Shown: positions 1-36,535 of the stretch, piece by piece
Position numbering within the stretch: the stretch's first letter is position 1
Layout of the letters: every line of letters starts with the position of its first letter
Source: Eledone cirrhosa
Taxonomy: Eukaryota
Length of the DNA: 64,000 bases
Assembly: GCA_964016885.1 (NCBI GenBank)
Contig: OZ024757.1
Span: 42,780,001-42,844,000, forward strand
Direction: 5' to 3'
Program-made: the position numbers and the translations under genes
Notes under the pieces: generated by a model
Told to the model about the DNA's origin: nothing
Seen by the model: only the letters and a program-made list of their open reading frames with translations
Databases searched by the model: none

Positions 1-3000
1 GGACCATACACCGCATGCGCCAAGGCCGCCGGACCATACTCCGCATGCGCCAAGGCCGCCGGACCGTTGTGCGCATGCGCCAAGGCCGCCTGACGACTGC
101 GCATGCGTCAAGGTCGCAATACCGAACTGCGCATGCGCTAAGGCCGGCGGACCGTAGTGCGCATTCGCCAAGGCCGCCGGACCGTAGTGCGCATTCGCCA
201 AGGCCGCCGGACCGTAGTGCGCATGCGCCAAGGCCGCCGGACCGTAGTGCGCATGCGCCAAGGCCGCCTAACTGTACTGCGCATGCGTCAAGGTCGCAGT
301 ACCGAACTGCGCATGCGCTAAGGCCGCCGGACCGTACTGCGCATGCGCCAAGGCCGCCGGACCGTAGTGCGCATGCGCCAAAGCCGCCGAACCGTAGTGC
401 GCATGCGCCAAGGTCGCCGGACCTGACTGCGCATGCGCCGCGGCCGCCGGACCGTACTGCGCATGCCCCAAGGCCGCCTGGTTGTACTGCGCATGCCCCA
501 AGGCTGCCTGGTTGTACTGCTAATGCCCCAAGGCCGCCCGACCGTAGTGCGAATGCGCCAAGGCCGCCTGACCGTAGTGCGCATGCGCCAAGGCCGCCGG
601 AGCGTAGTGCGCATGCGTCAAGGTCGCAGTACCGAACTGCGCATGCGCTAAGGCCGCCGGACCGAACTGCGTATGGGCTAAGGCCGCCGGACCGTACTGC
701 GCATGCGCCAAAGCCGCCGGACCGTAGTGCGCATGCGTCAAGGTCGCAGTACCGAACTGCGCATGCGCTAAGGCCGCCGGACCGTACTGCGCATGCGCCA
801 AGGCCGCCGGACCGTACTGCGCATACCCCAAGGCCGCCTGGTTGTACTGCGCATGCCCCAAGGCCGCCCGACCGTAGTGCGCATGCGCCAAAGCCGCCGA
901 ACCGTAGTGCGCATGCGCCAAGGCCGCCTAACTGTACTGCGCATGCGTCAAGGTCGCAGTACCGAACTGCGCATGCGCCAAGGCCGCCGGACCGTACTGC
1001 GAATGCGCCAAGGCCGCCGGACCGTAGTGCGCATGCGCCAAAGCCGCCGAACCGTAGTGCGCATGCGCCAAGGCCGCCGGACCATACTGCGCACGCATGC
1101 GCCGCGGCCGCAGGACCGTAGTGCGCATGCGCCAAGGCCGCCTGGTTGTACTGCGCATGCGCCAAGGCCGCCGGACCGTAGTGCGCATGCGCCAAGGCCG
1201 CCTGACTGTACTGCGCATGCGTCAAGGCCGCAGTACCGAACTGCGTATGGGCTAAGGCCGCCGGACCGTAGTGCGCATGCGCCAAGGCCGCCGGACCGTA
1301 GTGCGCATGCGCCAAGGCCGCCGGACCATACTGCGCATGCGCCAAGGCCGCCGGACCGTAGTGCGCATGCGCCAAGGCCGCCTAACTGTACTGCGCATGC
1401 GTCAAGGTCGCAGTACCGTACTGCGCATGCGCCAAGGCCGCCGAACCGTACTGCGCATGCGCCAAGGCCGCCGAACCGTACTGCGCATGCGCCAAGGCCG
1501 CCGAACCGTACTGCGCATGCGCCAAAGCCGCCGAACCGTAGTGCGCATGCGCCAAAGCCGCTGGACCGTAGTGCGCATGCGCCAAGGCCACTGGACCGTA
1601 CTGCGCGTGCTCTAAGACCGTCGGACCGCAGTGCGCATGCCCCAAGGCCGTCGGACCGTAGTGCGCATGCGCCAAGGCCGCCAGACCGTAGTGCGCATGC
1701 GCCAAGGCCGCCGAACCGTACTGCGCATGCGCCAAGGCCGCCGAACCGTACTGCGCATGCGCCAAGGCCGCCGAACCGTACTGCGCATGCGCCAAGGCCG
1801 CCGAACCGTACTGCGCATGCGCCAAAGCCGCCGAACCGTAGTGCGCATGCGCCAAAGCCGCTGGACCGTAGTGCGCATGCGCCAAGGCCACTGGACCGTA
1901 CTGCGCATGTACCAAGGCCGCCGTCGTAGTGCGCATGCGCCAAGGCCGCCGGAACTTTGTGCGCATGCGCCAAGGCCGCCGGACCGTAGTGCGCATGCGC
2001 CAAGGCCGCCGGAGCATACTGCGCATGCGCCAAGGCCACCGGACCGTAGTGCGCATGAGCCAAGGCCGCCGGACCGTAGTGCGCATGCGCCAAGGCCACC
2101 GGACCGTAGTGCGCATTAGCCAAGGCCGCCGGACCGTAGTGCGCATGCGCCAGAGCCGCCGAACCGTGGTGCACATGCGCCAAGCCCGTCGGACCGTAGT
2201 GCGCATGCGCCAAGCCCGCCGGACCGTAGTGCGCATGCGCCAAGGCCGCCTGACTGTACTGCGCATGCGTCAAGGTCCCAGTACCGAACTGCGCATGCGC
2301 TAAGGCCACCGGACCGTACTGCGCATGCGCCAAGGCCGCCGGACCGTTGTGCGCATGCGCCAGAGCCGCCGAACCGTGGTGTGCATGCGCCAAGGCCGCC
2401 GGACCATACTGCGCATGCGCCAAAGCCGCCTGACTGTACTGCGCATGCGACAAGGCCGCCGGACCGTAGTGCGCATGCGCCCAAGCCGCCGGACCATACT
2501 GCGCATGCGCCAAGGCCGCCGGACCGTAGTGCGCATGCGTCAAGACCGCAGTACCGAACTGCGCATGCGCTAAGGCCGCAGTACCGAACTGCGCATGCGC
2601 CAAGGCCGCCGGACCGTACTGCGCATGCGCCAAGGACGCCGGACCGTAGTGCGCATGCGCCAAAGACGCCGGACCGTAGTGCGCATGCGCCAAAGACGCC
2701 GAACAGTCGTGCCCATGCGCCAAGACCGCCGGACCGTACTGCGCATGCGCCAAGGCCGCTGAACCGTACTGCGCATGCCCCAAAGCCGCCGACCCGTAGT
2801 GCGCATGCACCAAGGCCACCGGACCGTACTGCGCATGCTCTAAGACCGTCGGACCGTAGTGCGCATGCCCCAAGGCCGTCGGACCGTAGTGCGCATGCGC
2901 CAAGGCCGCCAGACCGTAGTGCGCATACGCCAAGGCCGCCGAACCGTACTGCGCATGCGCCAAGGCCGCCGAACCGTACTGCGCATGCGCCAAGGCCGCC

Positions 3001-3167
3001 GAACCGTACTGCGCATGCGCCAAGGCCGCCGAACCGTACTGCGCATGCGCCAAAGCCGCTGGACCGTAGTGCGCATGCGCCAAGGCCACTGGACCGTACT
3101 GCGCATGTACCAAGGCCGCCGTCGTAGTGCGCATGCGCCAATGCCGCCGGACCTTTGTGCGCATGCG

Positions 3168-4132
3168 GTACGGTGGCCTTGGCGCATGCGCACTAAGGTC
3201 TAACGGCATTGGCGCATGCGCACTACGGTTCGGCGGCTTTGACGCACACGGACTACGTTCCGTCAGATTTGGCGCACGCACACTACGGTCCGGCGGTCTT
3301 GGCGCATGCGCACTACGGTCCGGCGACCATGCCGCATGCGCACTACGTTCCGGTGGCCTTGGCACATGCGCAGTACGGTCCGGCGGCTTTTGCGCATGCG
3401 CACTACGGTCTGGCAGCCTTGGCGCATGCGCACTACGGTCCAGCGGCCTTGGCGCATGCGCACTACGTTCCGGTGGCCTTGGCGCATGCGCAGTACGGTC
3501 CAGTGGCCTTGGCGCATGCGTAGTAAGGTCCGGCGCCCTTAGCGCATGCGCAGTACGGTCCGGCAGCCTTGGCGCATGCGCACTAAGGGCCAGCGGTCTT
3601 TGCGCATGCGCACAACGGTCCGGTGGCCTTGGCGCATGCGCACTACGGTCCGGCGGCCTTGGCGCATGCGCACTAAGGTCCGGCGGCCTTGGCGCATGCG
3701 CACTAAGGTCCGGCGGCTTTGGTGCATGCGCACTACGGTCTGGCATCATTGGCGCATGCGCACTACGGTCCGGCGGCCTTGGCGCATGCGCAGTACGGCT
3801 GGCAACCTTGGCGTATGCGCACTACGGTCTGTCGGCCTTGGCGCATGCGCACTACTGTCCGGCGGCCTTGGCGTATGCGCAGTACGGTCCAGCGGCCTTG
3901 GCGCATGCGCACTACGGTTCGGCGGCCTTGGCGCATGCGCACTACGGTTCGGCGGCCTTGGCGCATGCGTACAACGGTCCGGCGGCCTTGGCGCATGCGC
4001 ACTACGGTCTGGCAGCATTGGCGCAGGCGCACTAAGGTCCGGCGGCCTTGGCGCATGCGCACTACGGTCCGACGTCCTTGGCGCATGCGCACTACGGTCC
4101 GACGTCCTTGGCGCATGTGCAGTACGGTCCGG
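3168..4132 (-). repeat. Long inverted arm of the 30-bp satellite (965 bp)
   Basis: After the junction TTTGTGCGCATGCG|GTACGGTGGCCTTGG the monomers read ACTACGGTCCGGCGGCCTTG (reverse complement) up to the AT island. Confidence 0.97.
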
Positions 4133-4604
4133 ATGACTTTTTGGCCATTTTAAGCCTTTATGTTGCCATATTTAGCCATTTTTGAGTCATTTTAGTAATT
4201 TATGATGCAGTTTCAGCCATTCTGTTGTAATATGGCAACATAAATGATTAAATGGCCCTAAAATGGCTAAAACAGCATCATATTTGACAAAAATGACTCG
4301 TAAATGAGTAAAACGGTATCGTAAATGACTAAAATAACTCTAGAAAGGCTACTACAGCATCATAAATGATTAAAATGACTCTAAAACGACTAAAACGTCT
4401 AAAATGACAAAAATGGCTTTAATATAGCTTAAACTGCATCTTAAATGACTAAAACTACTAAAATGACTCCGAAATGGCTAAAAAAAAACATCATAAATGG
4501 CTAAAATGACACTAATGTGGCTAAAACGGACTGTTAAATTGCTAAATTGTCTCAAAAATGGCTAAAACGTCTTCATAAATAAATAAAATGGCTAAAACGT
4601 GGGT
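4133..4604. repeat. AT-rich island 1, type C with a 130-bp deletion (472 bp)
   Basis: Runs from ATGACTTTTTGGCC to GGCTAAAACGTGGGT and lacks the segment between the two ATTTATGATGCAGTTT direct repeats. Confidence 0.97.
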
Positions 4605-6393
4605 GCCGGACCGTAGTGCGCATGCGCCAAGGCCGCCGGACCGTAATGCGCATGCGCCAAGGCCGCCGGACCGTAGTGCGCATGCGCCAAGACCGACTGA
4701 CTGTACTGCGCATGTGTCATCGTCGCAGTACCGCACTGCGCATGCGGTAAGGCCGCCGGACCGTACTGCGCATGCGCCAAGGCCGCCGGACCGTAGTGCG
4801 CAGGCGCCAAGGCCGCCGGACCGTAGTGCGCATGCACCAAGGCCGCCTGAGTGTACTGCGCATGCATCAAGGTCCCAGTACCGTACTGCGCATGCGCAAA
4901 GGCCGCCGGACAGTAGTGCGCATGCGCCAGAGCCGCCGAACCGTAGTGCGCATGCGCCAAGGCCGTCGGACCGTAGTGCGCATGGGCCAAAGCCGCCCGA
5001 CCGTACTGCGCATGCGCTAAGTCCGTAGTACCGTACTGCGCATGCTACAAGGCCGCAGTACCGTACTGCGCATGCGACAAGGCCGCAGTACCGTAGTGCG
5101 CATGCGCCAAGGCCACCGGACCGTAGTGCGCATGAGCCAAGGCCGCCGGACCGTACTGCGCATGCGCCAAGCCCGCCGGACCGTAGTGCGCATGCGCCAA
5201 GGCCGCCTGACTGTACTGCGCATGCGCCAAGGCCGCCTGACTGTACTGCGCATGCGTCAAGGTCCCAGTACCGAACTGCGCATGCGCTAAGGCCACCGGA
5301 CCGTACTGCGCATGCGCCAAGGCCGCCGGACCGTAGTGCGCATGCGCCAGAGCCGCCGAACCCTGGTGTGCATGCGCCAAGGCCGCCGGACCATACTGCA
5401 CATGCGCCAAAGCCACCTGACTGTACTGCGCATGTGCCAAGGCCGCCTGACTGTACTGCGCATGCGACAAGGCCGCCAGACCGTAGTGCGCATGCGCCAA
5501 GGCCACCTAACTGTACTGCGCATGCGTCAAGGTCGCAGTACCGAACTGCGCATGCGCCAAGGCCGCCGGACCGTACTGCGCATGCGCCAAGGCCGCCGGA
5601 CCGTAGTGCGCATGCGCCAAAGCCGCCGAACCGTAGTGCGCATGCGCCAAGGCCGCCGGACCATACTGCGCACGCATGCGCGCGGCCGCAGGACCGTAGT
5701 GCGCATGCGCCAAGGCCGCCTGGTTGTACTGCGCATGCGCCAAGGCCGCCGGACCGTAGTGCGCATGCGCCAAGGCCGCCTGACTGTACTGCGCATGCGT
5801 CAAGGCCGCAGTACCGAACTGCGTATGGGCTAAGGCCGCCGGACCGTACTGCGCATGCGCCAAGGCCGCCGGACCGTAGTGCGCATGCGCCAAGGCCGCC
5901 GGACCGTAGTGCGCCTGCGCCAAGGCCGCCTAACTGTACTGCGCATGCGTTAAATCGCAGTACCGAACTGCGCATGCGCCAAGGCCGCCGGACCGTACTG
6001 CGAATGCGCCAAGGCCGCCGGACCGTAGTGCGCATGCGCCAAAGCCGCCGAACCGTAGTGCGCATGCGCCAAGGCCGCCGGACCATACTGCGCACGCATG
6101 CGCCGCGGCCGCAGGACCGTAGTGCGCATGCGCCAAGGCCGCCTGGTTGTACTGCGCATGCGCCAAGGCCGCCGGACCGTAGTGCGCATGCGCCAAGGCC
6201 GCCTGACTGTACTGCGCATGCGTCAAGGCCGCAGTACCGAACTGCGTATGGGCTAAGGCCGCCGGACCGTACTGCGCATGCGCCAAGGCCGCCGGACCGT
6301 AGTGCGCATGCGCCAAGGCCGCCATACCATACTGCGCATGCGCCAAGGCCGCCAGACCGTAGTGCGCATGCGCCAAGGCCGCCTAACTGTACT

Positions 6394-6433
6394 GCGCATG
6401 CGCACTACGGTCCGGCGGCCTTGGCGCATGCGC
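6394..6433 (-). repeat. Single inverted monomer within the forward array (inverted 20-mer also starts at 20404, 33378, 34673, 47088, 48383 and 60796)
   Basis: GCGCATGCGC-ACTACGGTCCGGCGGCCTTG-GCGCATGCGC, flanked on both sides by forward monomers. Confidence 0.95.
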
Positions 6434-7890
6434 TAAGGCCGCCGGACCGTACTGCGCATGCGCCAATGCCGCCGGACCGTAGTGCGCATGCGCCAAAGCC
6501 GCCGGACCGTAGTGCGCATGCGCCAAGGCCGCCTGGTTGTACTGCGCATGCGCCAAGGCCGCCGGATCGTAGTGCGCATGCGCCAAGGCCGCCTGACTGC
6601 ACTGCGCATGCGTCAAGGCCGCAGTACCGAACTGCGTATGGGCTAAGGCCGCCGGACCGTACTGCGCATGCGCCAAGGCCGCCGGACCGTAGTGCGCATG
6701 CGTCAAGGTCGCAGTACCGAACTGCGCATGCGCTAAGGCCGCCGGACCGTACTGCGCATGCGCCAAGGCCGCCGGACCGTAGTGCGCATGTGCCAAAGCC
6801 GCCGAACCGTAGTGCGCATGCGCCAAGGCCGCCTAACTGTACTGCGCATGCGTCAAGGTCGCAGTACCGAACTGCGCATGCGCCAAGGCCGCCGGACCGT
6901 ACTGCGAATGCGCCAAAGCCGCCGAACCGTAGTGCGCATGCGCCAAGGCCGCCGGACCATACTGCGCACGCATGCCGCGGTCGCAGGACCGTAGTGCGCA
7001 TGCGCCAAGGCCGCCTGGTTGTACTGCGCATGCGCCAAGGCCGCCGGACCGTAGTGCGCATGCGCCAAGGCCGCCTGACTGTACTGCGCATGCGTCAAGG
7101 CCGCAGTACCGAACTGCGTATGGGCTAAGGCCGCCGGACCGTACTGCGCATGCGCCAAGGCCGCCGGACCATACTGCGCATGCGCCAAGGCCGCCGGACC
7201 GTAGTGCGCATGCGCCAAGGCCGCCTAACTGTACTGCGCATGCGTCAAGGTCGCAGTACCGAACTGCGCATGCGCTAAGGCCGCCGGACCGTACTGCGCA
7301 TGCGCCAAGGCCGCGGGACCGTAGTGCGCATGCGCCAAAGCCGCCGGACCGTAGTGCGCATGCGCCAAGGCCGCCGGATCGTAGTGCGCATGCGCCAAGG
7401 CCGCCTGACTGTACTGCGCATGCGTCAAGGCCGCAGTACCGAACTGCGTATGGGCTAAGGCCGCCGGACCGTACTGCGCATGCGCCAAGACCGCCGGACC
7501 GTAGTGCGCATGCGTCAAGGTCGCAGTACCGAACTGCGCTTGCGCTAAGGCCGCCGGACCGTACTGCGCATGCGCCAAGGCCGCCGGACCGTAGTGCTCA
7601 TGCGCCAAAGCCGCCGAACCGTAGTGCGCATGCGCCAAGGCCGCCGGACCAGACTGCGCATGCGCCAAGGCCGCCGGACCGTAGTGCGCATGCGCCAAGG
7701 CCGCCGGACCGTAGTGCGCATGCGCCAAGGCCGCCTGACCGTAGTGCGCATGCGTCAAGGCCGCAGTACCGAACTGCGTATGGGCTAAGGCCGCCGGACC
7801 GTACTGCGCATGCGCCAAGGCCGCCGGACCGTACTGCGCATGCGCCAAGGCCGCCGGACCATACTGCGCATGCGCCAAGGCCGCCGTACA

Positions 7891-8266
7891 GCGCACTACG
7901 GTCTGGCATCATTGGCGCATGCGCACTACGGCCCGGCGGCCTTGGCGCATGCGCAGTACGGCCCGGCAACCTTGGCGTATGCGCACTACGGTCTGTCGGC
8001 CTTGGCGCATGCGCACTACTGTCCGGCGGCCTTGGCGCATGCGCAGTACGGTCCAGCGGCCTTGACGCATGCGCACTACGGTTCGGCGGCCTTGGCGCAT
8101 GCGTACAACGGTCCGGCGGCCTTGGCGCATGCGCACTACGGTCTGGCAGCATTGGCGCATGCGCACTACGGTCCGCCGTCCTTGGCGCATGCGCACTACG
8201 GTCCGCCGTCCTTGGCGCATGCGCACTACGGTCCGACGTCCTTGGCGCATGTGCAGTACGGTCCGG
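7891..8266 (-). repeat. Short inverted arm of the 30-bp satellite (376 bp)
   Basis: Junction CCGCCGTACA|GCGCACTACGG, followed by reverse-complement monomers. Confidence 0.97.
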
Positions 8267-8845
8267 ATGACTTTTTAGCCATTTTAAGCCTTTATGTTGC
8301 CATATTTAGCCATTTTTGAGTCATTTTAGTAATTTATGATGCAGTTTTTACCATTTTAGAGCCATTTATAGTCATTTTAGACGTTTCAGTCGTGTTAGAG
8401 TCATTCTAGTCAATTATGATACGGTTTTAGCATTTTAGTCGTTGATGATGACGTTTTAGTCATTTATGATGCAGATTCAGCCATTCTGTTGTAATATGGC
8501 AACATAAATGATTAAATGGCCCTAAAATGGCTAAAACAGCATCATATTTGACAAAAGTGACTCGTAAATGAGTAAAACGGTATCATAAATGACTAAAATA
8601 ACTCTAGAAAGGCTACTACAGCATCATAAATGATTAAAATGACTCTAAAACGACTAAAACGTCTAAAATGACAAAAATGGCTTTAATATAGCTTAAACTG
8701 CATCTTAAATGACTAAAACTACTAAAATGACTCCGAAATGGCTAAAATGACACTAAAGTGGCTAAAACGGACTGTTAAATTGCTAAATTGTCTCTAAAAT
8801 GGCTAAAACGTCTTCATAAATAAATAAAATGGCTAAAACGTGGGT
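8267..8845. repeat. AT-rich island 2, type A (579 bp)
   Basis: Diagnostic variants CTTTTTAGCC, GCAGATTCAG and ACAAAAGTGA. It lacks the A-run/CATCATAAATGGCT segment of types B and C. Confidence 0.97.
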
Positions 8846-11800
8846 GCCGGACCGTAGTGCGCATGCGCCAAGGCCGCCGGACCGTAATGCGCATGCGCCA
8901 AGGCCGCCGGATCGTAGTGCGCATGCGCCAAGGCCGACTGACTGTACTGCGCATGTGTCATCGTCGCAGTACCGAACTGCGCATGCGGTAAGGCCGCCGG
9001 ACCGTACTGCGCATGCGCCAAGGCCGCCGGACCGTAGTGCGCAGGCGCCAAGGCCGCCGGACCGTAGTGCGCATGCACCAAGGCCGCCTGAGTGTACTGC
9101 GCATGCATCAAGGTCCCAGTACCGTACTGCGCAAAGGCCGCCGGACAGTAGTGCGCATGCGCCAGAGCCGCCGAACCGTAGTGCGCATGCGCCAAGGCCG
9201 CCCGACCGTAGTGCGCATGGGCCAAAGCCGCCCGACCGTACTGCGCATGCGCTAAGTCCGTAGTACCGTACTGCGCATGCTACAAGGCCGCAGTACCGTA
9301 CTGCGCATGCGACAAGGCCGCAGTACCGTAGTGCGCATGCGCCAAGGCCACCGGACCGTAGTGCGCATGAGCCAAGGCCGCCGGACCGTACTGCGCATGC
9401 GCCAAGCCCGCCGGACCGTAGTGCGCATGCGCCAGAGCCGCCGAACCGTGGTGCACATGCGCCAAGCCCGCCGGACCGTAGTGCGCATGCGCCAAGCCCG
9501 CCGGACCGTAGTGCGCATGCGCCAAGGCCGCCTGACTGTACTGCGCATGCGTCAAGGTCCCAGTACCGAACTGCTCATGCGCTAAGGCCACCGGACCGTA
9601 CTGCGCATGCGCCAAGGCCGCCGGACCTTAGTGCGCATGCGCCAGAGCCGCCGAACCGTGGTGTGCATGCGCCAAGGCCGCCGGACCATACTGCGCATGC
9701 GCCAAAGCCGCCTGACTGTACTGCGCATGCGCCAAGGCCGCCTGACTGTACTGCGCATGCGACAAGGCCGCCGGACCGTTGTGCGCATGCGCCAAGGAAC
9801 CTAAATGTACTGCGCATGGTCGCAGTACCGAACTGCGCATGCGCCAAGGCCGCCGGACCGTACTGCGAATGCGCCAAGGCCGCCGGACCGTAGTGCGCAT
9901 GCGCCAAAGCCGCCGAACCGTGGTGCACATGCGCCAAGCCCGTCGGACCGTAGTGCGCATGCGCCAAGCCCGCCGGACCGTAGTGCGCATGCGCCAAGGC
10001 CGCCTGACTGTACTGCGCATGCGTCAAGGTCCCAGTACCGAACTGCGCATGCGCTAAGGCCACGGGACCGTACTGCGCATGCGCCAAGGCCGCCGGACCG
10101 TTGTGCGCATGCGCCAGAGCCGCCGAACCGTGGTGTGCATGCGCCAAGGCCACCGGACCATACTGCGCATGCGCCAAAGCCGCCTGACTGTACTGCGCAT
10201 GCGCCAAGGCCGCCTGACTGTACTGCGCATGCGACAAGGCCGCCGGACCGTAGTGCGCATGCGCCCAAGCCGCCGGACCATACTGCGCATGCGCCAAGGC
10301 CGCCGGACCGTAGTGCGCATGCGTCAAGGCCGCAGTACCGAACTGCGCATGCGCTAAGGCCGCAGTACCGAACTGCGCATGCGCTAAGGCCGCAGTACCG
10401 AACTGCGCATGCGCCAAGGCCGCCGGACCGTACTGCGCATGCGCCAAGGACGCCGGACCGTAGTGCGCAGGCGCCAAAGACGCCGGACCGTAGTGCGCAT
10501 GCGCCAAAGACGCCGAACAGTCGTGCCCATGCGCCAAGACCGCCGGACCGTACTGCGCATGCGCCAAGGCCGCTGAACCGTACTGCGCATGCCCCAAAGC
10601 CGCCGACCCGTAGTGCGCATGCACCAAGGCCACCGGACCGTACTGCGCATGCTCCAAGACCGTCGGACCGTAGTGCGCATGCCCCAAGGCCGTCGGACCG
10701 TAGTGCGCATGCGCCAATGCCGCCAGACCGTAGTGCGCATACGCCAAGGCCGCCGAACCGTACTGCGCATGCGCCAAGGCCGCCGAACCGTACTGCGCAT
10801 GCGCCAAGGCCGCCGAACCGTACTGCGCATGCGCCAAGGCCGCCGAACCGTACTGCGCATGCGCCAAAGCCGCTGGACCGTAGTGCGCATGCGCCAAGGC
10901 CACTGGACCGTACTGCGCATGTACCAAGGCCGCCGTCGTAGTGCGCATGCGCCAATGCCGCCGGACCTTTGTGCGCATGCGGTACGGTGGCCTTGGCGCA
11001 TGCGCACTAAGGTCTAACGGCCTTGGCGCATGCGCACTACGGTTCGGCGGCTTTGACGCACACGGACTACGTTCCGTCAGATTTGGCGCACGCACACTAC
11101 GGTCCGGCGGTCTTGGCGCATGCGCACTACGGTCCGGCGACCACGCCGCATGCGCACTACGTTCCGGTGGCCTTGGCACATGCGCAGTACCGTCCGGCGG
11201 CTTTTGCGCATGCGCACTACGGTCTGGCAGCCTTGGCGCATGCGCACTACGGTCCAGCGGCCTTGGCGCATGCGCACTACGTTCCGGTGGCCTTGGCGCA
11301 TGCGCAGTACGGTCCAGTGGCCTTGGCGCATGCGTAGTAAGGTCCGGCGCCCTTAGCGCATGCGCAGTACGGTCCGGCAGCCTTGGCGCATGCGCACTAA
11401 GGGCCAGCGGTCTTTGCGCATGCGCACAACGGTCCGGTGGCCTTGGCGCATGCGCACTACGGTCCGGCGGCCTTGGCGCATGCGCACTAAGGTCCGGCGG
11501 CTTTGGTGCATGCGCACTACGGTCTGGCATCATTGGCGCATGCGCACTACGGTCCGGCGGCCTTGGCGCATGCGCAGTACGGCTGGCAACCTTGGCGTAT
11601 GCGCACTACGGTCTGTCGGCCTTGGCGCATGCGCACTACTGTCCGGCGGCCTTGGCGTATGCGCAGTACGGTCCAGCGGCCTTGGCGCATGCGCACTACG
11701 GTTCGGCGGCCTTGGCGCATGCGCACTACGGTTCGGCGGCCTTGGCGCATGCGTACAACGGTCCGGCGGCCTTGGCGCATGCGCACTACGGTCTGGCAGC

Positions 11801-12140
11801 ATTGGCGCAGGCGCACTAAGGTCCGGCGGCCTTGGCGCATGCGCACTACGGTCCGACGTCCTTGGCGCATGCGCACTACGGTCCGACGTCCTTGGCGCAT
11901 GTGCAGTACGGTCCGGATGACTTTTTGGCCATTTTAAGCCTTTATGTTGCCATATTTAGCCATTTTTGAGTCATTTTAGTAATTTATGATGCAGTTTTTA
12001 CCATTTTAGAGCCATTTATAGTCATTTTAGACGTTTCAGTCGTGTTAGAGTCATTCTAGTCAATTATGATACGGTTTTAGCATTTTAGTCGTTGATGATG
12101 ACGTTTTAGTCATTTATGATGCAGTTTCAGCCATTCTGTT
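8490..12140. mobile_element. Representative macro-unit read as a putative non-autonomous foldback-like element (AT-forward, GC-forward ... GC-reverse, AT-reverse), tandemly amplified
   Basis: Bipartite inverted repeats built from tandem sub-repeats, with homologous AT/GC junctions on both sides. No transposase or target-site duplication is visible, so mobility is inferred only. Confidence 0.4.
10982..11916 (-). repeat. Long inverted arm (935 bp)
   Basis: Same junction and variant order as 3168-4132, one monomer shorter. Confidence 0.96.
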
Positions 12141-12517
12141 GTAATATGGCAACATAAATGATTAAATGGCCCTAAAATGGCTAAAACAGCATCATATTTG
12201 ACAAAAATGACTCGTAAATGAGTAAAACGGTATCGTAAATGACTAAAATAACTCTAGAAAGGCTACTACAACATCATAAATGATTAAAATGACTCTAAAA
12301 CGACTAAAACGTCTAAAATGACAAAAATGGCTTTAATATAGCTTAAACTGCATCTTAAATGACTAAAACTACTAAGATGACTCCGAAATGGCTAAAAAAA
12401 ACATCATAAATGGCTAAAATGACACTAAAGTGGCTAAAACGGACTGTTAAATTGCTAAATTGTCTCTAAAATGGCTAAAACGTCTTCATAAATAAATAAA
12501 ATGGCTAAAACGTGGGT
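11917..12517. repeat. AT-rich island 3, type B (601 bp)
   Basis: Diagnostic variants CTACAACATC and ACTAAGATGA, with an A8 run. Confidence 0.97.
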
Positions 12518-15500
12518 GCCGGACCGTAGTGCGCATGCGCCAAGGCCGCCGGACCGTAATGCGCATGCGCCAAGGCCGCCGGACCGTAGTGCGCATGCGC
12601 CAAGACCGACTGACTGTACTGCGCATGTGTCATCGTCGCAGTACCGCACTGCGCATGCGGTAAGGCCGCCGGACCGTACTGCGCATGCGCCAAGGCCGCC
12701 GGACCGTAGTGCGCAGGCGCCAAGGCCGCCAGACCGTAGTGCGCATGCACCAAGGCCGCCTGAGTGTACTGCGCATGCATCAAGGTCCCAGTACCGCACT
12801 GCGCATGCGCAAAGGCCGCCGGACAGTAGTGCGCATGCGCCAGAGCCGCCGAACCGTAGTGCGCATGCGCCAAGGCCGCCGGACCGTAGTGCGCATGGGC
12901 CAAAGCCGCCCGACCGTACTGCGCATGCGCTAAGTCCGTAGTACCGTACTGCGCATGCTACAAGGCCGCAGTACCGTACTGCGCATGCGACAAGGCCGCA
13001 GTACCGTAGTGCGCATGCGCCAAGGCCACCGGACCGTAGTGCGCATGAGCCAAGGCCGCCGGACCGTACTGCGCATGCGCCAAGCCCGCCGGACCGTAGT
13101 GCGCATGCGCCAGAGCCGCCGAACCGTGGTGCACATGCGCCAAGCCCGCCGGACCGTAGTGCGCATGCGCCAAGGCCGCCGGACCATACACCGCATGCGC
13201 CAAGGCCGCCGGACCATACTCCGCATGCGCCAAGGCCGCCGGACCGTTGTGCGCATGCGCCAAGGCCGCCTGACGACTGCGCATGCGTCAAGGTCGAAAT
13301 ACCGAACTGCGCATGCGCTAAGGCCGGCGGACCGTAGTGCGCATTCGCCAAGGCCGCCGGACCGTAGTGCGCATTCGCCAAGGCCGCCGGACCGTAGTGC
13401 GCATGCGCCAAGGCCGCCGGACCGTAGTGCGCATGCGCCAAGGCCGCCTAACTGTACTGCGCATGCGTCAAGGTCGCAGTACCGAACTGCGCATGCGCTA
13501 AGGCCGCCGGACCGTACTGCGCATGCGCCAAGGCCGCCGGACCGTAGTGCGCATGCGCCAAAGCCGCCGAACCGTAGTGCGCATGCGCCAAGGTCGCCGG
13601 ACCTGACTGCGCATGCGCCGCGGCCGCCGGACCGTACTGCGCATGCCCCAAGGCCGCCTGGTTGTACTGCGCATGCCCCAAGGCTGCCTGGTTGTACTGC
13701 TAATGCCCCAAGGCCGCCCGACCGTAGTGCGCATGCGCCAAGGCCGCCTGACCGTAGTGCGCATGCGCCAAGGCCGCCGGACCGTAGTGCGCATGCGTCA
13801 AGGTCGCAGTACCGAACTGCGCATGCGCTAAGGCCGCCGGACCGAACTGCGTATGGGCTAAGGCCGCCGGACCGTACTGCGCATGCGCCAAAGCCGCCGG
13901 ACCGTAGTGCGCATGCGTCAAGGTCGCAGTACCGAACTGCGCATGCGCTAAGGCCGCCGGACCGTACTGCGCATGCGCCAAGGCCGCCGGACCGTACTGC
14001 GCATACCCCAAGGCCGCCTGGTTGTACTGCGCATGCCCCAAGGCCGCCCGACCGTAGTGCGCATGCGCCAAAGCCGCCGAACCGTAGTGCGCATGCGCCA
14101 AGGCCGCCTAACTGTACTGCGCATGCGTCAAGGTCGCAGTACCGAACTGCGCATGCGCCAAGGCCGCCGGACCGTACTGCGAATGCGCCAAGGCCGCCGG
14201 ACCGTAGTGCGCATGCGCCAAAGCCGCCGAACCGTAGTGCGCATGCGCCAAGGCCGCCGGACCATACTGCGCACGCATGCGCCGCGGCCGCAGGACCGTA
14301 GTGCGCATGCGCCAAGGCCGCCTGGTTGTACTGCGCATGCGCCAAGGCCGCCGGACCGTAGTGCGCATGCGCCAAGGCCGCCTGACTGTACTGCGCATGC
14401 GTCAAGGCCGCAGTACCGAACTGCGTATGGGCTAAGGCCGCCGGACCGTACTGCGCATGCGCCAAGGCCGCCGGACCGTAGTGCGCATGCGCCAAGGCCG
14501 CCGGACCATACTGCGCATGCGCCAAGGCCGCCGGACCGTAGTGCGCATGCGCCAAGGCCGCCTAACTGTACTGCGCATGCGTCAAGGTCGCAGTACCGTA
14601 CTGCGCATGCGCCAAGGCCGCCGAACCGTACTGCGCATGCGCCAAGGCCGCCGAACCGTACTGCGCATGCGCCAAGGCCGCCGAACCGTACTGCGCATGC
14701 GCCAAAGCCGCCGAACCGTAGTGCGCATGCGCCAAAGCCGCTGGACCGTAGTGCGCATGCGCCAAGGCCACTGGACCGTACTGCGCATGTACCAAGGCCG
14801 CCGTCGTAGTGCGCATGCGCCAAGGCCGCCGGAACTTTGTGCGCATGCGCCAAGGCCGCCGGACCGTAGTGCGCATGCGCCAAGGCCGCCGGACCATAGT
14901 GCGCATGCGCCAAGGCCGCCGGAGCATACTGCGCATGCGCCAAGGCCACCGGACCGTAGTGCGCATGAGCCAAGGCCGCCGGACCGTAGTGCGCATGCGC
15001 CAAGGCCACCGGACCGTAGTGCGCATGAGCCAAGGCCGCCGGACCGTAGTGCGCATGCGCCAGAGCCGCCGAACCGTGGTGCACATGCGCCAAGCCCGTC
15101 GGACCGTAGTGCGCATGCGCCAAGCCCGCCGGACCGTAGTGCGCATGCGCCAAGGCCGCCTGACTGTACTGCGCATGCGTCAAGGTCCCAGTACCGAACT
15201 GCGCATGCGCTAAGGCCACCGGACCGTACTGCGCATGCGCCAAGGCCGCCGGACCGTTGTGCGCATGCGCCAGAGCCGCCGAACCGTGGTGTGCATGCGC
15301 CAAGGCCGCCGGACCATACTGCGCATGCGCCAAAGCCGCCTGACTGTACTGCGCATGCGCCAAGGCCGCCTGACTGTACTGCGCATGCGACAAGGCCGCC
15401 GGACCGTAGTGCGCATGCGCCCAAGCCGCCGGACCATACTGCGCATGCGCCAAGGCCGCCGGACCGTAGTGCGCATGCGTCAAGGCCGCAGTACCGAACT

Positions 15501-16107
15501 GCGCATGCGCTAAGGCCGCAGTACCGAACTGCGCATGCGCCAAGGCCGCCGGACCGTACTGCGCATGCGCCAAGGACGCCGGACCGTAGTGCGCATGCGC
15601 CAAAGACGCCGGACCGTAGTGCGCATGCGCCAAAGACGCCGAACAGTCGTGCCCATGCGCCAAGACCGCCGGACCGTACTGCGCATGCGCCAAGGCCGCT
15701 GAACCGTACTGCGCATGCCCCAAAGCCGCCGACCCGTAGTGCGCATGCACCAAGGCCACCGGACCGTACTGCGCATGCTCTAAGACCGTCGGACCGTAGT
15801 GCGCATGCCCCAAGGCCGTCGGACCGTAGTGCGCATGCGCCAAGGCCGCCAGACCGTAGTGCGCATACGCCAAGGCCGCCGAACCGTACTGCGCATGCGC
15901 CAAGGCCGCCGAACCGTACTGCGCATGCGCCAAGGCCGCCGAACCGTACTGCGCATGCGCCAAGGCCGCCGAACCGTACTGCGCATGCGCCAAGGCCGCC
16001 GAACCGTAGTGCGCATGCGCCAAGGCCACTGGACCGTACTGCGCATGTACCAAGGCCGCCGTCGTAGTGCGCATGCGCCAATGCCGCCGGACCTTTGTGC
16101 GCATGCG

Positions 16108-17102
16108 GTACGGTGGCCTTGGCGCATGCGCACTAAGGTCTAACGGCATTGGCGCATGCGCACTACGGTTCGGCGGCTTTGACGCACACGGACTACGTTC
16201 CGTCAGATTTGGCGCACGCACACTACGGTCCGGCGGTCTTGGCGCATGCGCACTACGGTCCGGCGACCATGCCGCATGCGCACTACGTTCCGGTGGCCTT
16301 GGCACATGCGCAGTACGGTCCGGCGGCTTTTGCGCATGCGCACTACGGTCTGGCAGCCTTGGCGCATGCGCACTACGGTCCAGCGGCCTTGGCGCATGCG
16401 CACTACGTTCCGGTGGCCTTGGCGCATGCGCAGTACGGTCCAGTGGCCTTGGCGCATGCGTAGTAAGGTCCGGCGCCCTTAGCGCATGCGCAGTACGGTC
16501 CGGCAGCCTTGGCGCATGCGCACTAAGGGCCAGCGGTCTTTGCGCATGCGCACAACGGTCCGGTGGCCTTGGCGCATGCGCACTACGGTCCGGTGGCCTT
16601 GGCGCATGCGCACTACGGTCCGGCGGCCTTGGCGCATGCGCACTAAGGTCCGGCGGCTTTGGTGCATGCGCACTACGGTCTGGCATCATTGGCGCATGCG
16701 CACTACGGTCCGGCGGCCTTGGCGCATGCGCAGTACGGCTGGCAACCTTGGCGTATGCGCACTACGGTCTGTCGGCCTTGGCGCATGCGCACTACTGTCC
16801 GGCGGCCTTGGCGTATGCGCAGTACGGTCCAGCGGCCTTGGCGCATGCGCAGTACGGTCCAGCGGCCTTGGCGCATGCGCACTACGGTTCGGCGGCCTTG
16901 GCGCATGCGCACTACGGTTCGGCGGCCTTGGCGCATGCGTACAACGGTCCGGCGGCCTTGGCGCATGCGCACTACGGTCTGGCAGCATTGGCGCAGGCGC
17001 ACTAAGGTCCGGCGGCCTTGGCGCATGCGCACTACGGTCCGACGTCCTTGGCGCATGCGCACTACGGTCCGACGTCCTTGGCGCATGTGCAGTACGGTCC
17101 GG
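16108..17102 (-). repeat. Long inverted arm (995 bp)
   Basis: Same junction as 3168. Confidence 0.96.
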
Positions 17103-17704
17103 ATGACTTTTTGGCCATTTTAAGCCTTTATGTTGCCATATTTAGCCATTTTTGAGTCATTTTAGTAATTTATGATGCAGTTTTTACCATTTTAGAGCCA
17201 TTTATAGTCATTTTAGACGTTTCAGTCGTGTTAGAGTCATTCTAGTCAATTATGATACGGTTTTAGCATTTTAGTCGTTGATGATGACGTTTTAGTCATT
17301 TATGATGCAGTTTCAGCCATTCTGTTGTAATATGGCAACATAAATGATTAAATGGCCCTAAAATGGCTAAAACAGCATCATATTTGACAAAAATGACTCG
17401 TAAATGAGTAAAACGGTATCGTAAATGACTAAAATAACTCTAGAAAGGCTACTACAGCATCATAAATGATTAAAATGACTCTAAAACGACTAAAACGTCT
17501 AAAATGACAAAAATGGCTTTAATATAGCTTAAACTGCATCTTAAATGACTAAAACTACTAAAATGACTCCGAAATGGCTAAAAAAAAACATCATAAATGG
17601 CTAAAATGACACTAAAGTGGCTAAAACGGACTGTTAAATTGCTAAATTGTCTCTAAAATGGCTAAAACGTCTTCATAAATAAATAAAATGGCTAAAACGT
17701 GGGT
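17103..17704. repeat. AT-rich island 4, type C (602 bp)
   Basis: Full-length island with an A9 run, CTACAGCATC and ACTAAAATGA. Confidence 0.97.
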
Positions 17705-20700
17705 GCCGGACCGTAGTGCGCATGCGCCAAGGCCGCCGGACCGTAATGCGCATGCGCCAAGGCCGCCGGACCGTAGTGCGCATGCGCCAAGACCGACTGA
17801 CTGTACTGCGCATGTGTCATCGTCGCAGTACCGCACTGCGCATGCGGTAAGGCCGCCGGACCGTACTGCGCATGCGCCAAGGCCGCCGGACCGTAGTGCG
17901 CAGGCGCCAAGGCCGCCGGACCGTAGTGCGCATGCACCAAGGCCGCCTGAGTGTACTGCGCATGCATCAAGGTCCCAGTACCGTACTGCGCATGCGCAAA
18001 GGCCGCCGGACAGTAGTGCGCATGCACCAGAGCCGCCGAACCGTAGTGCGCATGCGCCAAGGCCGTCGGACCGTAGTGCGCATGGGCCAAAGCCGCCCGA
18101 CCGTACTGCGCATGCGCTAAGTCCGTAGTACCGTACTGCGCATGCTACAAGGCCGCAGTACCGTACTGCGCATGCGACAAGGCCGCAGTACCGTAGTGCG
18201 CATGCGCCAAGGCCACCGGACCGTAGTGCGCATGAGCCAAGGCCGCCGGACCGTACTGCGCATGCGCCAAGCCCGCCGGACCGTAGTGCGCATGCGCCAA
18301 GGCCGCCTGACTGTACTGCGCATGCGCCAAGGCCGCCTGACTGTACTGCGCATGCGTCAAGGTCCCAGTACCGAACTGCGCATGCGCTAAGGCCACCGGA
18401 CCGTACTGCGCATGCGCCAAGGCCGCCGGACCGTAGTGCGCATGCGCCAGAGCCGCCGAACCCTGGTGTGCATGCGCCAAGGCCGCCGGACCATACTGCA
18501 CATGCGCCAAAGCCACCTGACTGTACTGCGCATGTGCCAAGGCCGCCTGACTGTACTGCGCATGCGACAAGGCCGCCAGACCGTAGTGCGCATGCGCCAA
18601 GGCCACCTAACTGTACTGCGCATGCGTCAAGGTCGCAGTACCGAACTGCGCATGCGCCAAGGCCGCCGGACCGTACTGCGCATGCGCCAAGGCCGCCGGA
18701 CCGTAGTGCGCATGCGCCAAAGCCGCCGAACCGTAGTGCGCATGCGCCAAGGCCGCCGGACCATACTGCGCACGCATGCGCGCGGCCGCAGGACCGTAGT
18801 GCGCATGCGCCAAGGCCGCCTGGTTGTACTGCGCATGCGCCAAGGCCGCCGGACCGTAGTGCGCATGCGCCAAGGCCGCCTGACTGTATTGCGCATGCGT
18901 CAAGGCCGCAGTACCGAACTGCGTATGGGCTAAGGCCGCCGGACCGTACTGCGCATGCGCCAAGGCCGCCGGACCGTAGTGCGCATGCGCCAAGGCCGCC
19001 GGACCGTAGTGCGCCTGCGCCAAGGCCGCCTAACTGTACTGCGCATGCGTTAAATCGCAGTACCGAACTGCGCATGCGCTAAGGCCGCCGGACCGTACTG
19101 CGCATGCGCCAAAGCCGCCGGACCGTAGTGCGCATGCGCCAAGTCCGCCTGGTTGTACTGCGCATGCGCCAAGGCCGCCGGACCGTAGTGCGCATGCGCC
19201 AAGGCCGCCTGACTGTACTGCGCATGCGTCAAGGCCGCAGTACCGAACTGCGTATGGGCTAAGGCCGCCGGACCGTACTGCGCATGCGCCAAGGCCGCCG
19301 GACCGTAGTGCGCATGCGCCAAGGCCGCCGGACCATACTGCGCATGCGCCAAGGCCGCCGGACCGTAGTGCGCATGCGCCAAGGCCGCCTAACTGTACTG
19401 CGCATGCGTCAAGGTCGCAGTACCGAACTGCGCATGCGCTAAGGCCGCCGGACCGTACTGCGCATGCGCCAAGGCCGCCGTACCGTAGTGCGCATGCGCC
19501 AAAGCCGCCGAACCGTAGTGCGCATGCGCCAAGGCCGCCGGACCAGACTGCGCATGCGCCATGGCCGCCGGACCGTAGTGCGCATGCGCCAAGGCCGCCT
19601 GACCGTAGTGCGCATGCGCCAAGGCCGCCTGACTGTACTGCGCATGCGCCAAGGCCGCCGGACCGTAGTGCGCATGCGCCAAGGCCGCCGGACCGTAGTG
19701 TGCATGCGCCAAGACCGCCTAACTGTACTGCGCATGCGCCAAGGCCACCTAACTGTACTGCGCATGCGTCAAGGTCGCAGTACCGAACTGCGCATGCGCC
19801 AAGGCCGCCGGACCGTACTGCGAATGCGCCAAGGCCGCCGAACCGTAGTGCGCATGCGCCAAGGCCGCCTGACTGTACTGCGCATGCGTCAAGGCCGCAG
19901 TACCGAACTGCGCATGCGCTAAGGCCGCCGGACCGAACAGCGTATGGGCTAAGGCCGCCGGACCGTACTGCGCATGCGCCAAGGCCGCCGGACCGTAGTG
20001 CGCATGCGCCAAAGCCGCCGAACCGTAGTGCGCATGCGCCAAGGCCGCCTAACTGTACTGCGCATGCGTCAAGGTCGCAGTACCGAACTGCGCATGCGCC
20101 AAGGCCGCCGGACCGTACTGCGAATGCGCCAAGGCCGCCGGACCGTAGTGCGCATGCGCCAAAGCCGCCGAACCGTAGTGCGCATGCGCCAAGGCCGCCG
20201 GACCATACTGCGCACGCATGCGCCGCGGCCGCAGGGCCGTAGTGCGCATGCGCCAAGGCCGCCGGACCGTACTGCGCATGCGCCAAGGCCGCCGGACCGT
20301 AGTGCGCATGCGCCAAGGCCGCCGGACCATACTGCGCATGCGCCAAGGCCGCCAGACCGTAGTGCGCATGCGCCAAGGCCGCCTAACTGTACTGCGCATG
20401 CGCACTACGGTCCGGCGGCCTTGGCGCATGCGCTAAGGCCGCCGGACCGTACTGCACATGCGCCAATGCCGCCGGACCGTAGTGCGCATGCGCCAAAGCC
20501 GCCGGACCGTAGTGCGCATGCGCCAAGGCCGCCTGGTTGTACTGCGCATGCGCCAAGGCCGCCGGATCGTAGTGCGCATGCGCCAAGGCCGCCTGACTGC
20601 ACTGCGCATGCGTCAAGGCCGCAGTACCGAACTGCGTATGGGCTAAGGCCGCCGGACCGTACTGCGCATGCGCCAAGGCCGCCGGACCGTAGTGCGCATG

Positions 20701-21890
20701 CGTCAAGGTCGCAGTACCGAACTGCGCATGCGCTAAGGCCGCCGGACCGTACTGCGCATGCGCCAAGGCCGCCGGACCGTAGTGCGCATGTGCCAAAGCC
20801 GCCGAACCGTAGTGCGCATGCGCCAAGGCCGCCTAACTGTACTGCGCATGCGTCAAGGTCGCAGTACCGAACTGCGCATGCGCCAAGGCCGCCGGACCGT
20901 ACTGCGAATGCGCCAAAGCCGCCGAACCGTAGTGCGCATGCGCCAAGGCCGCCGGAACATACTGCGCACGCATGCCGCGGTCGCAGGACCGTAGTGCGCA
21001 TGCGCCAAGGCCGCCTGGTTGTACTGCGCATGCGCCAAGGCCGCCGGACCGTAGTGCGCATGCGCCAAGGCCGCCTGACTGTACTGCGCATGCGTCAAGG
21101 CCGCAGTACCGAACTGCGTATGGGCTAAGGCCGCCGGACCGTACTGCGCATGCGCCAAGGCCGCCGGACCATACTGCGCATGCGCCAAGGCCGCCGGACC
21201 GTAGTGCGCATGCGCCAAGGCCGCCTAACTGTACTGCGCATGCGTCAAGGTCGCAGTACCGAACTGCGCATGCGCTAAGGCCGCCGGACCGTACTGCGCA
21301 TGCGCCAAGGCCGCGGGACCGTAGTGCGCATGCGCCAAAGCCGCCGGACCGTAGTGCGCATGCGCCAAGGCCGCCGGATCGTAGTGCGCATGCGCCAAGG
21401 CCGCCTGACTGTACTGCGCATGCGTCAAGGCCGCAGTACCGAACTGCGTATGGGCTAAGGCCGCCGGACCGTACTGCGCATGCGCCAAGACCGCCGGACC
21501 GTAGTGCGCATGCGTCAAGGTCGCAGTACCGAACTGCGCTTGCGCTAAGGCCGCCGGACCGTACTGCGCATGCGCCAAGGCCGCCGGACCGTAGTGCTCA
21601 TGCGCCAAAGCCGCCGAACCGTAGTGCGCATGCGCCAAGGCCGCCGGACCAGACTGCGCATGCGCCAAGGCCGCCGGACCGTAGTGCGCATGCGCCAAGG
21701 CCGCCGGACCGTAGTGCGCATGCGCCAAGGCCGCCTGACCGTAGTGCGCATGCGTCAAGGCCGCAGTACCGAACTGCGTATGGGCTAAGGCCGCCGGACC
21801 GTACTGCGCATGCGCCAAGGCCGCCGGACCGTACTGCGCATGCGCCAAGGCCGCCGGACCATACTGCGCATGCGCCAAGGCCGCCGTACA

Positions 21891-22266
21891 GCGCACTACG
21901 GTCTGGCATCATTGGCGCATGCGCACTACGGCCCGGCGGCCTTGGCGCATGCGCAGTACGGCCCGGCAACCTTGGCGTATGCGCACTACGGTCTGTCGGC
22001 CTTGGCGCATGCGCACTACTGTCCGGCGGCCTTGGCGCATGCGCAGTACGGTCCAGCGGCCTTGACGCATGCGCACTACGGTTCGGCGGCCTTGGCGCAT
22101 GCGTACAACGGTCCGGCGGCCTTGGCGCATGCGCACTACGGTCTGGCAGCATTGGCGCATGCGCACTACGGTCCGCCGTCCTTGGCGCATGCGCACTACG
22201 GTCCGCCGTCCTTGGCGCATGCGCACTACGGTCCGACGTCCTTGGCGCATGTGCAGTACGGTCCGG
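21891..22266 (-). repeat. Short inverted arm (376 bp)
   Basis: Same junction as 7891 at offset 14,000. Confidence 0.96.
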
Positions 22267-22845
22267 ATGACTTTTTAGCCATTTTAAGCCTTTATGTTGC
22301 CATATTTAGCCATTTTTGAGTCATTTTAGTAATTTATGATGCAGTTTTTACCATTTTAGAGCCATTTATAGTCATTTTAGACGTTTCAGTCGTGTTAGAG
22401 TCATTCTAGTCAATTATGATACGGTTTTAGCATTTTAGTCGTTGATGATGACGTTTTAGTCATTTATGATGCAGATTCAGCCATTCTGTTGTAATATGGC
22501 AACATAAATGATTAAATGGCCCTAAAATGGCTTAAACAGCATCATATTTGACAAAAGTGACTCGTAAATGAGTAAAACGGTATCATAAATGACTAAAATA
22601 ACTCTAGAAAGGCTACTACAGCATCATAAATGATTAAAATGACTCTAAAACGACTAAAACGTCTAAAATGACAAAAATGGCTTTAATATAGCTTAAACTG
22701 CATCTTAAATGACTAAAACTACTAAAATGACTCCGAAATGGCTAAAATGACACTAAAGTGGCTAAAACGGACTGTTAAATTGCTAAATTGTCTCTAAAAT
22801 GGCTAAAACGTCTTCATAAATAAATAAAATGGCTAAAACGTGGGT
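22267..22845. repeat. AT-rich island 5, type A (579 bp)
   Basis: Carries the type A diagnostic variants. Confidence 0.97.
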
Positions 22846-24922: not shown

Positions 24923-25827
24923 GTACGGTGGCCTTGGCGCATGCGCACTAAGGTCTAACGGCCTTGGCGCATGCGCACTACGGTTCGGCGGCTTTGACGC
25001 ACACGGACTACGTTCCGTCAGATTTGGCGCACGCACACTACGGTCCGGCGGTCTTGGCGCATGCGCACTACGGTCCGGCGACCACGCCGCATGCGCACTA
25101 CGTTCCGGTGGCCTTGGCACATGCGCAGTACCGTCCGGCGGCTTTTGCGCATGCGCACTACGGTCTGGCAGCCTTGGCGCATGCGCACTACGGTCCAGCG
25201 GCCTTGGCGCATGCGCACTACGTTCCGGTGGCCTTGGCGCATGCGCAGTACGGTCCAGTGGCCTTGGCGCATGCGTAGTAAGGTCCGGCGCCCTTAGCGC
25301 ATGCGCAGTACGGTCCGGCAGCCTTGGCGCATGCGCACTAAGGGCCAGCGGTCTTTGCGCATGCGCACAACGGTCCGGTGGCCTTGGCGCATGCGCACTA
25401 CGGTCCGGCGGCCTTGGCGCATGCGCACTAAGGTCCGGCGGCTTTGGTGCATGCGCACTACGGTCTGGCATCATTGGCGCATGCGCACTACGGTCCGGCG
25501 GCCTTGGCGCATGCGCAGTACGGCTGGCAACCTTGGCGTATGCGCACTACGGTCTGTCGGCCTTGGCGCATGCGCACTACTGTCCGGCGGCCTTGGCGTA
25601 TGCGCAGTACGGTCCAGCGGCCTTGGCGCATGCGCACTACGGTTCGGCGGCCTTGGCGCATGCGCACTACGGTTCGGCGGCCTTGGCGCATGCGTACAAC
25701 GGTCCGGCGGCCTTGGCGCATGCGCACTAAGGTCCGGCGGCCTTGGCGCATGCGCACTACGGTCCGACGTCCTTGGCGCATGCGCACTACGGTCCGACGT
25801 CCTTGGCGCATGTGCAGTACGGTCCGG
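24923..25827 (-). repeat. Long inverted arm (905 bp)
   Basis: Same junction as 3168, and shares private variants with 10982-11916 (TAACGGCCTT, ACCACGCCGC). Confidence 0.96.
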
Positions 25828-36159: not shown

Positions 36160-36535
36160 GCGCACTACGGTCTGGCATCATTGGCGCATGCGCACTACGG
36201 CCCGGCGGCCTTGGCGCATGCGCAGTACGGCCCGGCAACCTTGGCGTATGCGCACTACGGTCTGTCGGCCTTGGCGCATGCGCACTACTGTCCGGCGGCC
36301 TTGGCGCATGCGCAGTACGGTCCAGCGGCCTTGACGCATGCGCACTACGGTTCGGCGGCCTTGGCGCATGCGTACAACGGTCCGGCGGCCTTGGCGCATG
36401 CGCACTACGGTCTGGCAGCATTGGCGCATGCGCACTACGGTCCGCCGTCCTTGGCGCATGCGCACTACGGTCCGCCGTCCTTGGCGCATGCGCACTACGG
36501 TCCGACGTCCTTGGCGCATGTGCAGTACGGTCCGG
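36160..36535 (-). repeat. Short inverted arm (376 bp)
   Basis: Same junction as 7891. Confidence 0.96.

Follow-up and report, generated by a model that had tools for sequence, protein, structure and literature searches.

Mirrored AT/GC junctions in a satellite domain of Eledone cirrhosa: a probable fold-back origin followed by tandem amplification

How can an island of one satellite DNA come to lie within another satellite so that its two borders are mirror images of each other? This question is raised by a stretch of 64,000 nucleotides (nt) from Eledone cirrhosa (assembly GCA_964016885.1, contig OZ024757.1, positions 42,780,001 to 42,844,000 of the forward strand), which was analysed as a whole and is called the window in this study. 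The entire window (1..64000, no strand assigned) is satellite DNA. Most of it consists of a repeat of 30 base pairs (bp) with a content of about 68% guanine and cytosine (GC), and 10.9% of it consists of 12 islands of a degenerate 41-bp repeat with about 31% GC, which is referred to here as the adenine- and thymine-rich (AT) repeat. The two monomers are unrelated, as 153 of 1,000 shuffles align equally well. A preliminary description of the window had proposed that the two AT/GC junctions of an island are homologous in inverted orientation and that each island derives from a single AT+GC module duplicated in that orientation. We consider it probable that one AT+GC hybrid junction was duplicated by a single old fold-back event and was then amplified in tandem.

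The units of the domain follow one order, which is a long forward GC arm, a strand switch, a short inverted GC arm, an inverted AT arm, a second strand switch, a forward AT arm, and a forward GC arm. The units that carry the 12 AT cassettes are 3.6-7.1 kilobases (kb) long and form super-units of about 12.4-14.3 kb, and the commonest long offsets within the window include 13,710, 14,269, 14,000, 13,911, and 12,351 nt. Two types of cassette occur along the window in the order B A B B A B B A B A B A, and a single base close to the left junction sets the seven type B islands apart from the five of type A. The islands are 580 nt (five), 602-603 nt (six), and 473 nt (one) long, and the changes in size are deletions only. 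Any two islands differ by 0-8 substitutions, in addition to deletions of about 23 and 130 nt. Therefore, all 12 islands are copies of one amplified cassette, and the window offers one pair of junctions to test. The type B cassette at 11917..12518 (602 bp, no strand assigned) was used as the reference for the alignment of reads and the analysis of units. The island at 4133-4605 lacks about 130 nt of the left arm, and the missing part lies between two copies of a 16-nt direct repeat, which are found at 11982 and 12112 in the full island.

In the first type A island, the left AT/GC junction (8255..8282, reverse strand) has its breakpoint between 8266 and 8267, and the right junction (8827..8860, forward strand) has its breakpoint at about 8846 and 8847. 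These are the junctions given in the preliminary description, and both are found at one register in 12 of 12 islands. The significance of the shared register was evaluated by phase permutation under a null model in which the breakpoints are uniform. Among random AT x GC chimeras, 501 of 124,560 scored at least as high as the real pair when 20 nt were compared on each side, and 290 of 119,760 did so with 30 nt on each side; when only the same orientation was allowed, the counts were 496 of 62,280 (20 nt) and 290 of 59,880 (30 nt). The overall chance of such a match among random chimeras is 0.2-0.4%, and the claim that the two junctions have a common AT phase and a common GC register is thus confirmed, although the letters at the joint itself differ. 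Most of the similarity between the junctions is a matter of common phase. The terminal AT 30-mers of the two sides match at 22 of 30 positions, with the next best windows at 21 of 30, and the terminal AT units at both junctions are short forms. A 10-bp palindrome in the GC monomer is a hot spot for strand switches of the GC satellite. Both junctions lie about 12 nt from it, and it therefore does not account for the shared register. Microhomology at the joints amounts to 1 base or so.

The AT arms provide a second line of evidence. The left arm (8267..8495, reverse strand) comprises 229 bp of the degenerate 41-bp repeat, and the right arm (8496..8846, forward strand) comprises 351 bp, or 373-374 bp in type B. 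When the states of the units were projected on a 10-unit consensus, two adjacent pairs of units with common derived states were found on one diagonal. In the first pair, the common states are two substitutions and a 3-nt gap by which two units are fused. In the second pair, there are four, which partly result from the same fusion. Shuffling the order of units reached the observed collinearity score in 37 of 4,000 (local) and 39 of 4,000 (global) trials. The identity of the arms over aligned columns is 83% (189 of 228), with several long gaps. Two 16-mers that are 2 and 3 positions off the consensus are common to both arms; in simulations of independent arms, a common 16-mer with at least 3 differences arose in 16-34 of 4,000 runs, and one with at least 2 differences arose in 126-185 of 4,000. 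On balance, the AT arms are a duplicated pair. They meet at a palindrome without a spacer (8487..8504, no strand assigned) that is centred between 8495 and 8496, and among 555 centres, only this one has 7 of 9 pairs without a spacer. In addition to the fused unit, the left arm contains an intact copy of the centre motif at 8291-8306, which indicates that the centre was likely once a perfect 18-bp palindrome from which two pairs have since been lost. Such a decayed palindrome with zero spacer at the AT strand switch is a fold-back signature and fits an inverted duplication. From this palindrome and the collinear arms, we infer the fold-back step.

The GC satellite also switches strand, and the window contains 12 such switches, one ahead of each island. 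The type A switch (7879..7910, forward to reverse) occurs in five identical copies and leads into a short inverted GC arm (7890..8266, reverse strand) of about 12.5 monomers, a shortened version of the arm that measures 0.9-0.97 kb in type B units. The long forward GC arm that follows the island (8847..10981, forward strand) is 2.1 kb long (about 2-5.6 kb in other units) and has monomer variants that are absent from the inverted arm. It ends at a type B switch (10965..11000, no strand assigned), which occurs in seven identical copies and in one inverted copy ending at 29094 and which lies at the 10-bp palindrome of the monomer. This palindrome (GCGCATGCGC) is perfect, and four of the five distinct types of GC switch break within it, the fifth lying beside a remnant of it. 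Across a type B switch, 28813..29564 (reverse strand) is a 752-nt exact reverse-complement match to 2681-3432, which suggests that the inversion process is recent. The segment 28813-30284 forms a palindrome with 726 exact bases per arm and a 27-nt spacer that occurs once, and it could be either an inverted duplication of very recent date or an error of the assembly. The GC monomer, rich in palindromes, is likely a continuing source of new inversions.

Some smaller features of the GC satellite should also be mentioned. A single GC monomer is inverted between two 10-bp palindromes at 6390..6432 (no strand assigned), and this arrangement occurs in seven copies, the other six lying near 20400, 33380, 34680, 47090, 48390, and 60800. 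The type A switch (7879-7910) resembles the reversed type B switch (29065-29094), both having a monomer 5 nt short before the palindrome, and judging from this likeness, type A may be a flipped and truncated type B. Variant monomers of the forward arm at 12609-15550 contain short internal inverted repeats, as if they had arisen from local template switching, and are absent from the inverted arm.

According to the history that we favour, two unrelated satellites would have been joined once. A short palindrome within the AT stretch would then have been the site at which a fork or a broken end folded back. From there, copying would have run in reverse through the AT arm, across the junction, and into some GC monomers until a second switch at the 10-bp palindrome of the GC monomer brought the direction back. 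The arms would subsequently have drifted, with one arm gaining or the other losing two units; the divergence itself is observed, and this account of its cause is conjectural. Damage at the centre stabilises palindromes, and the two changed central bases would have reduced the instability of the hairpin. In the last step, which is directly visible in the window, the cassette with its GC arms was copied as the units and super-units described above. Because the cassette and the GC arms were copied together in tandem, the fixed junctions and switch sites were inherited rather than formed anew. The pattern is explicable without any function, and a role in chromatin is putative only.

Sequencing reads and contigs from four of the seven listed runs were compared with 11860-12580 at 82% likeness, and all figures for reads refer to the matches listed. 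Runs X1 and X2 may come from the source sample of the window, X5 comes from another sample, and X4 carries another species label. X4, which held only 0.05 of the words and had a depth of 0 at 12335-12384, may represent a relative or a trace and was not used for dating events. The left junction is bridged by contigs of X1 (record 1), X2 (record 9), and X4 (record 17) and by raw reads of X5 at a depth of about 800, and the AT centre is bridged by X2 record 11. For the right junction, X1 record 3 reaches 28 letters into the GC side, which is below the 31-letter rule; this junction is probably spanned by 50 molecules of X5 that end at 12458. No contig spanning the whole island was found among the contigs listed. 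A left-type junction in an X4 contig has 18 differences and 11 gap letters in 177 nt, which indicates that such junctions persist while diverging. The summed depth of consensus-like AT stretches is in the thousands, compared with about 100-250 for island-specific contigs, and this difference in depth, which is not copy number, suggests a larger AT satellite elsewhere. A second, apparently one-armed cassette consisting of the left arm, 116 letters, and forward GC is deeper in X1 than the type of the window and is present in X4 too.

The layout of the window has a counterpart in the macro-dyads of Tribolium, namely TmSat1/TmSat2 of T. madens (PMC13081366) and TfSat01/TfSat03 of T. freemani (bioRxiv 10.1101/2024.12.02.626372). 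The Tribolium authors consider macro-dyads to be documented only in Tribolium, and they suggest a possible function for the conserved sites of inversion and transition but allow that mechanisms of spread could explain them (PMC13081366). A literature search for macro-dyad satellites, with most subscription papers outside it, found two Tribolium studies and two further papers in which the term appears in the references only. As in Tribolium, long arrays of a major repeat are broken by short cassettes of a minor repeat (the 12 AT islands), both satellites switch strand (12 of 12 AT islands and 12 GC switches), and conserved inversion sites are accompanied by two different transition zones on opposite sides. 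At this one locus, the AT centre has 0 mismatches over 31 nt in 12 of 12 islands, the GC switches are identical in 5 of 5 and 7 of 7 copies, and the junctions are conserved in 12 of 12. The major and minor satellites are unrelated, as in T. freemani (bioRxiv 10.1101/2024.12.02.626372). However, the monomers are 30 and 41 bp long here and 166-704 bp long in Tribolium, and the contrast in GC content between the satellites (68% vs 31%) is unlike Tribolium. The number of minor repeats varies among Tribolium cassettes, whereas the size of the cassette is nearly fixed here and has changed by deletions only. Direct and inverted subarrays tend to symmetry in Tribolium; here, within 64 kb, the forward GC arms are about 2-5.6 kb and the inverted arms 0.38-0.97 kb, always in the same way. 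The Tribolium domains are multi-megabase, putatively (peri)centromeric, and present on all chromosomes, whereas we describe cassettes of 0.6 kb within units of 3.6-7.1 kb at one 64-kb locus. The origin can be read at the base level here, unlike in Tribolium. The window shows three features of the Tribolium layout and lacks two, and it works like this layout but is not filed as a member.

Other systems share single aspects of the window. Isolated inversions in satellite arrays are known elsewhere, e.g., in mouse (bioRxiv 10.1101/2024.12.02.626372). In the Rsp-like/1.688 hybrids of the Drosophila simulans clade (PMC7403614), a rare junction between unrelated satellites spreads by descent as a higher-order unit, as it does here; however, one end of the hybrids is fixed and the other is variable, with up to 7 bp of microhomology, whereas both ends are fixed and mirrored here, and the word "inverted" does not appear in the main text of that paper. 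In human fold-back inverted duplications (PMC3907307), the strand switches at a short inverted sequence, as at the AT centre and the GC switches. Their spacers range from 766 bp to 70 kb, compared with 0 nt at the AT centre and 27 nt in the recent GC event, and unlike the human cases, the fold-back product here was amplified in tandem inside a satellite. The transposon Tetris (PMC4079207) has long modular inverted repeats holding tandem repeats that are able to grow into a satellite, and the inverted arms here are likewise modular, though diverged. Tetris has termini, a middle domain, and target-site duplications; none of these was seen in this window, nor was a flanking domain or a dispersed copy.

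A number of observations weigh against the duplication of one hybrid junction. The junctions constitute one independent pair only. The letters at the joint are GTCAT on one side and GTGGGTG on the other, a difference that may place the two breakpoints 3-5 nt from each other. For the right terminal 30-mer, the match to an internal unit of the left arm (23 of 30 positions) is slightly better than that to the left terminal unit. The terminal units have at most one derived substitution in common, and short units are present inside the left arm too. A divergence of about 17% with indels between the AT arms is not that of a clean duplication, and between the fused unit and the junction, the right arm is longer by two units. 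Because the simulation of independent arms assumes a star phylogeny, its outcome supports a common source array and not a common junction. None of the 31 monomers of the inverted GC arm has more than 2 variants in common with any of the 119 monomers of the forward arm, and no diagonal is formed, although rapid turnover of GC monomers could have removed a signal of duplication. The reads contain further joints. In 111 X5 reads, an arm of the left type reaches its joint 37 nt early, as if the left junction had been deleted. Another joint leads from 12087 in the left arm to forward GC across 116 unread letters; it has a depth of 249.8 in X1 and 4.06 in X4 and is seen in two X5 reads, and the depths in X1 sum (184 + 250 = 434) as if two structures had the left arm in common. 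Moreover, 322 loose ends in X5 (agreement only 0.64) have the appearance of a joint between reverse AT and forward GC at the palindrome phase, and we infer that it is the one across the 116 letters. The differing joint letters, the two extra units, the unlike GC arms, and the further joints would suit a history in which the fold-back took place within a pure AT array and each arm acquired its GC neighbour in a separate event, the two registers being nearly alike through chance or microhomology. A precedent exists in Drosophila, where Rsp-like/1.688 junctions have arisen repeatedly and independently close to one position in the 1.688 monomer (PMC7403614). However, separate joins would require a coincidence of 0.2-0.8% under uniform breakpoints and a short terminal unit twice, the microhomology is slight, and the GC switch hot spot lies at another phase. 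We therefore regard separate joins as unlikely and a single duplicated junction as the better account. The preliminary description was right that an island is not a random insertion of AT sequence, given a register beyond chance, collinear AT arms with common derived states, and a decayed palindrome at the switch. Its single inverted-duplicated module finds support in the AT arms but not in the descent of both junctions from one, nor in the GC arms, which lack collinear variants. It had named junctions at arbitrary registers elsewhere as evidence to the contrary, and such joints do occur in part, namely the one that is 37 nt short and probably another in the opposite relative orientation. The junctions are inherited and diverging, but their register is not unique in the genome. 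A GC strand switch in every unit and the derivation of all islands from one amplified cassette form a larger pattern than the one originally described.

The remaining explanations concern the nature of the structure rather than its joints. That the cassette and its GC arms are a foldback-type transposon whose outer repeats expanded into a satellite, like Tetris of Drosophila virilis (PMC4079207), is very unlikely. Such an element could account for a two-part inverted repeat whose outer domain is tandem and whose inner domain is AT-rich, but the zero spacer leaves no middle domain, and within 64 kb neither a flanking domain nor fixed termini nor unique flanks are present. The outer ends are satellite switches of two types, at which no duplication of 8-10 bp is visible, all flanks being satellite; the arms are diverged as stated above; and in the runs, the AT repeat reaches a far greater depth elsewhere than the parts specific to the island. 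Maintenance of the dyad layout by selection as a (peri)centromeric chromatin element, as proposed for Tribolium, would be compatible with a fold-back origin, and we consider it rather unlikely. The four fixed points of the Tribolium cassette are found here as well. In both arms, A- and T-tracts are spaced at about 10.1 bp (measured in the type B copy for the right arm), a spacing reached by 1 and 2 of 500 shuffles. Phasing at about 10.1 bp would favour DNA bending or the rotational setting of nucleosomes. The single strand 8200-8910 has a strong predicted hairpin that pairs junction with junction (-199.4 kcal/mol, z of -22 against 20 shuffles), a fold that also speaks for the duplication of one junction, and extrusion of this hairpin from duplex DNA, given the divergence of the arms, would be an unproven extension of a predicted fold. 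However, recent amplification accounts for switch sites and junctions that are nearly identical, as the islands are conserved to the same degree over their whole length. The GC dyad is asymmetric, always in one direction, and the match of the tract phases across the AT centre, within about 1 bp, has a chance of about 1 in 5. An assembly artefact produced by fold-back chimeric reads is extremely improbable as the source of the inverted structure. The lack of a listed contig across a whole island would be expected of an artefact, and the single exact palindrome at 28813-30284 could be one; the arms of the islands, however, are diverged and not exact mirrors, contigs bridge the centre and the left junction, the raw reads of another sample cover the left junction, and the islands carry heritable variants in a nested pattern.

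The value of this locus lies in its whole architecture more than in the match of its junctions. A very different pair of satellites with the same four fixed points suggests that the macro-dyad layout can arise again. A single fold-back followed by tandem amplification offers a neutral alternative to the functional model, and the two can be tested against each other. It is possible, if on the unlikely side, that the window belongs to a macro-dyad domain outside Tribolium that arose independently by means of a self-inverting monomer, with cassettes of phased A-tracts as protein-bound (peri)centromeric landmarks. If this is a domain outside Tribolium and it is centromeric, it would bear on whether the shape of DNA, and not its sequence, marks centromeres. 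If it is not centromeric, it is a clear worked case of palindromic monomers inverting satellite arrays.

Searches with the sequence returned no match to the junction pattern in metagenome contigs, no match to the GC monomer pattern in metagenome, viral, or prokaryote contigs, and no Rfam match across 7500-13000. No RNA run was listed as containing the sequence, which says nothing about its expression. The literature searched gave no match for a 15-nt GC motif, for a 16-nt AT motif, or for a description of the architecture. A coding role was rejected, as the 56 open reading frames of at least 250 amino acids are overlapping frames of the 30-mer on both strands. Among 196 distinct GC monomers, no excess of CpG transitions was found (0.058, compared with 0.059 in CHH and 0.068 in CHG contexts, the counts not being independent). 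The GC monomer contains five CpG per 30 bp, and with no such excess, there may be little methylation in the lineage or in the array. The palindrome of the GC monomer (window 12519-12548) presumably resembles the binding motif of NRF1/EWG-type factors.

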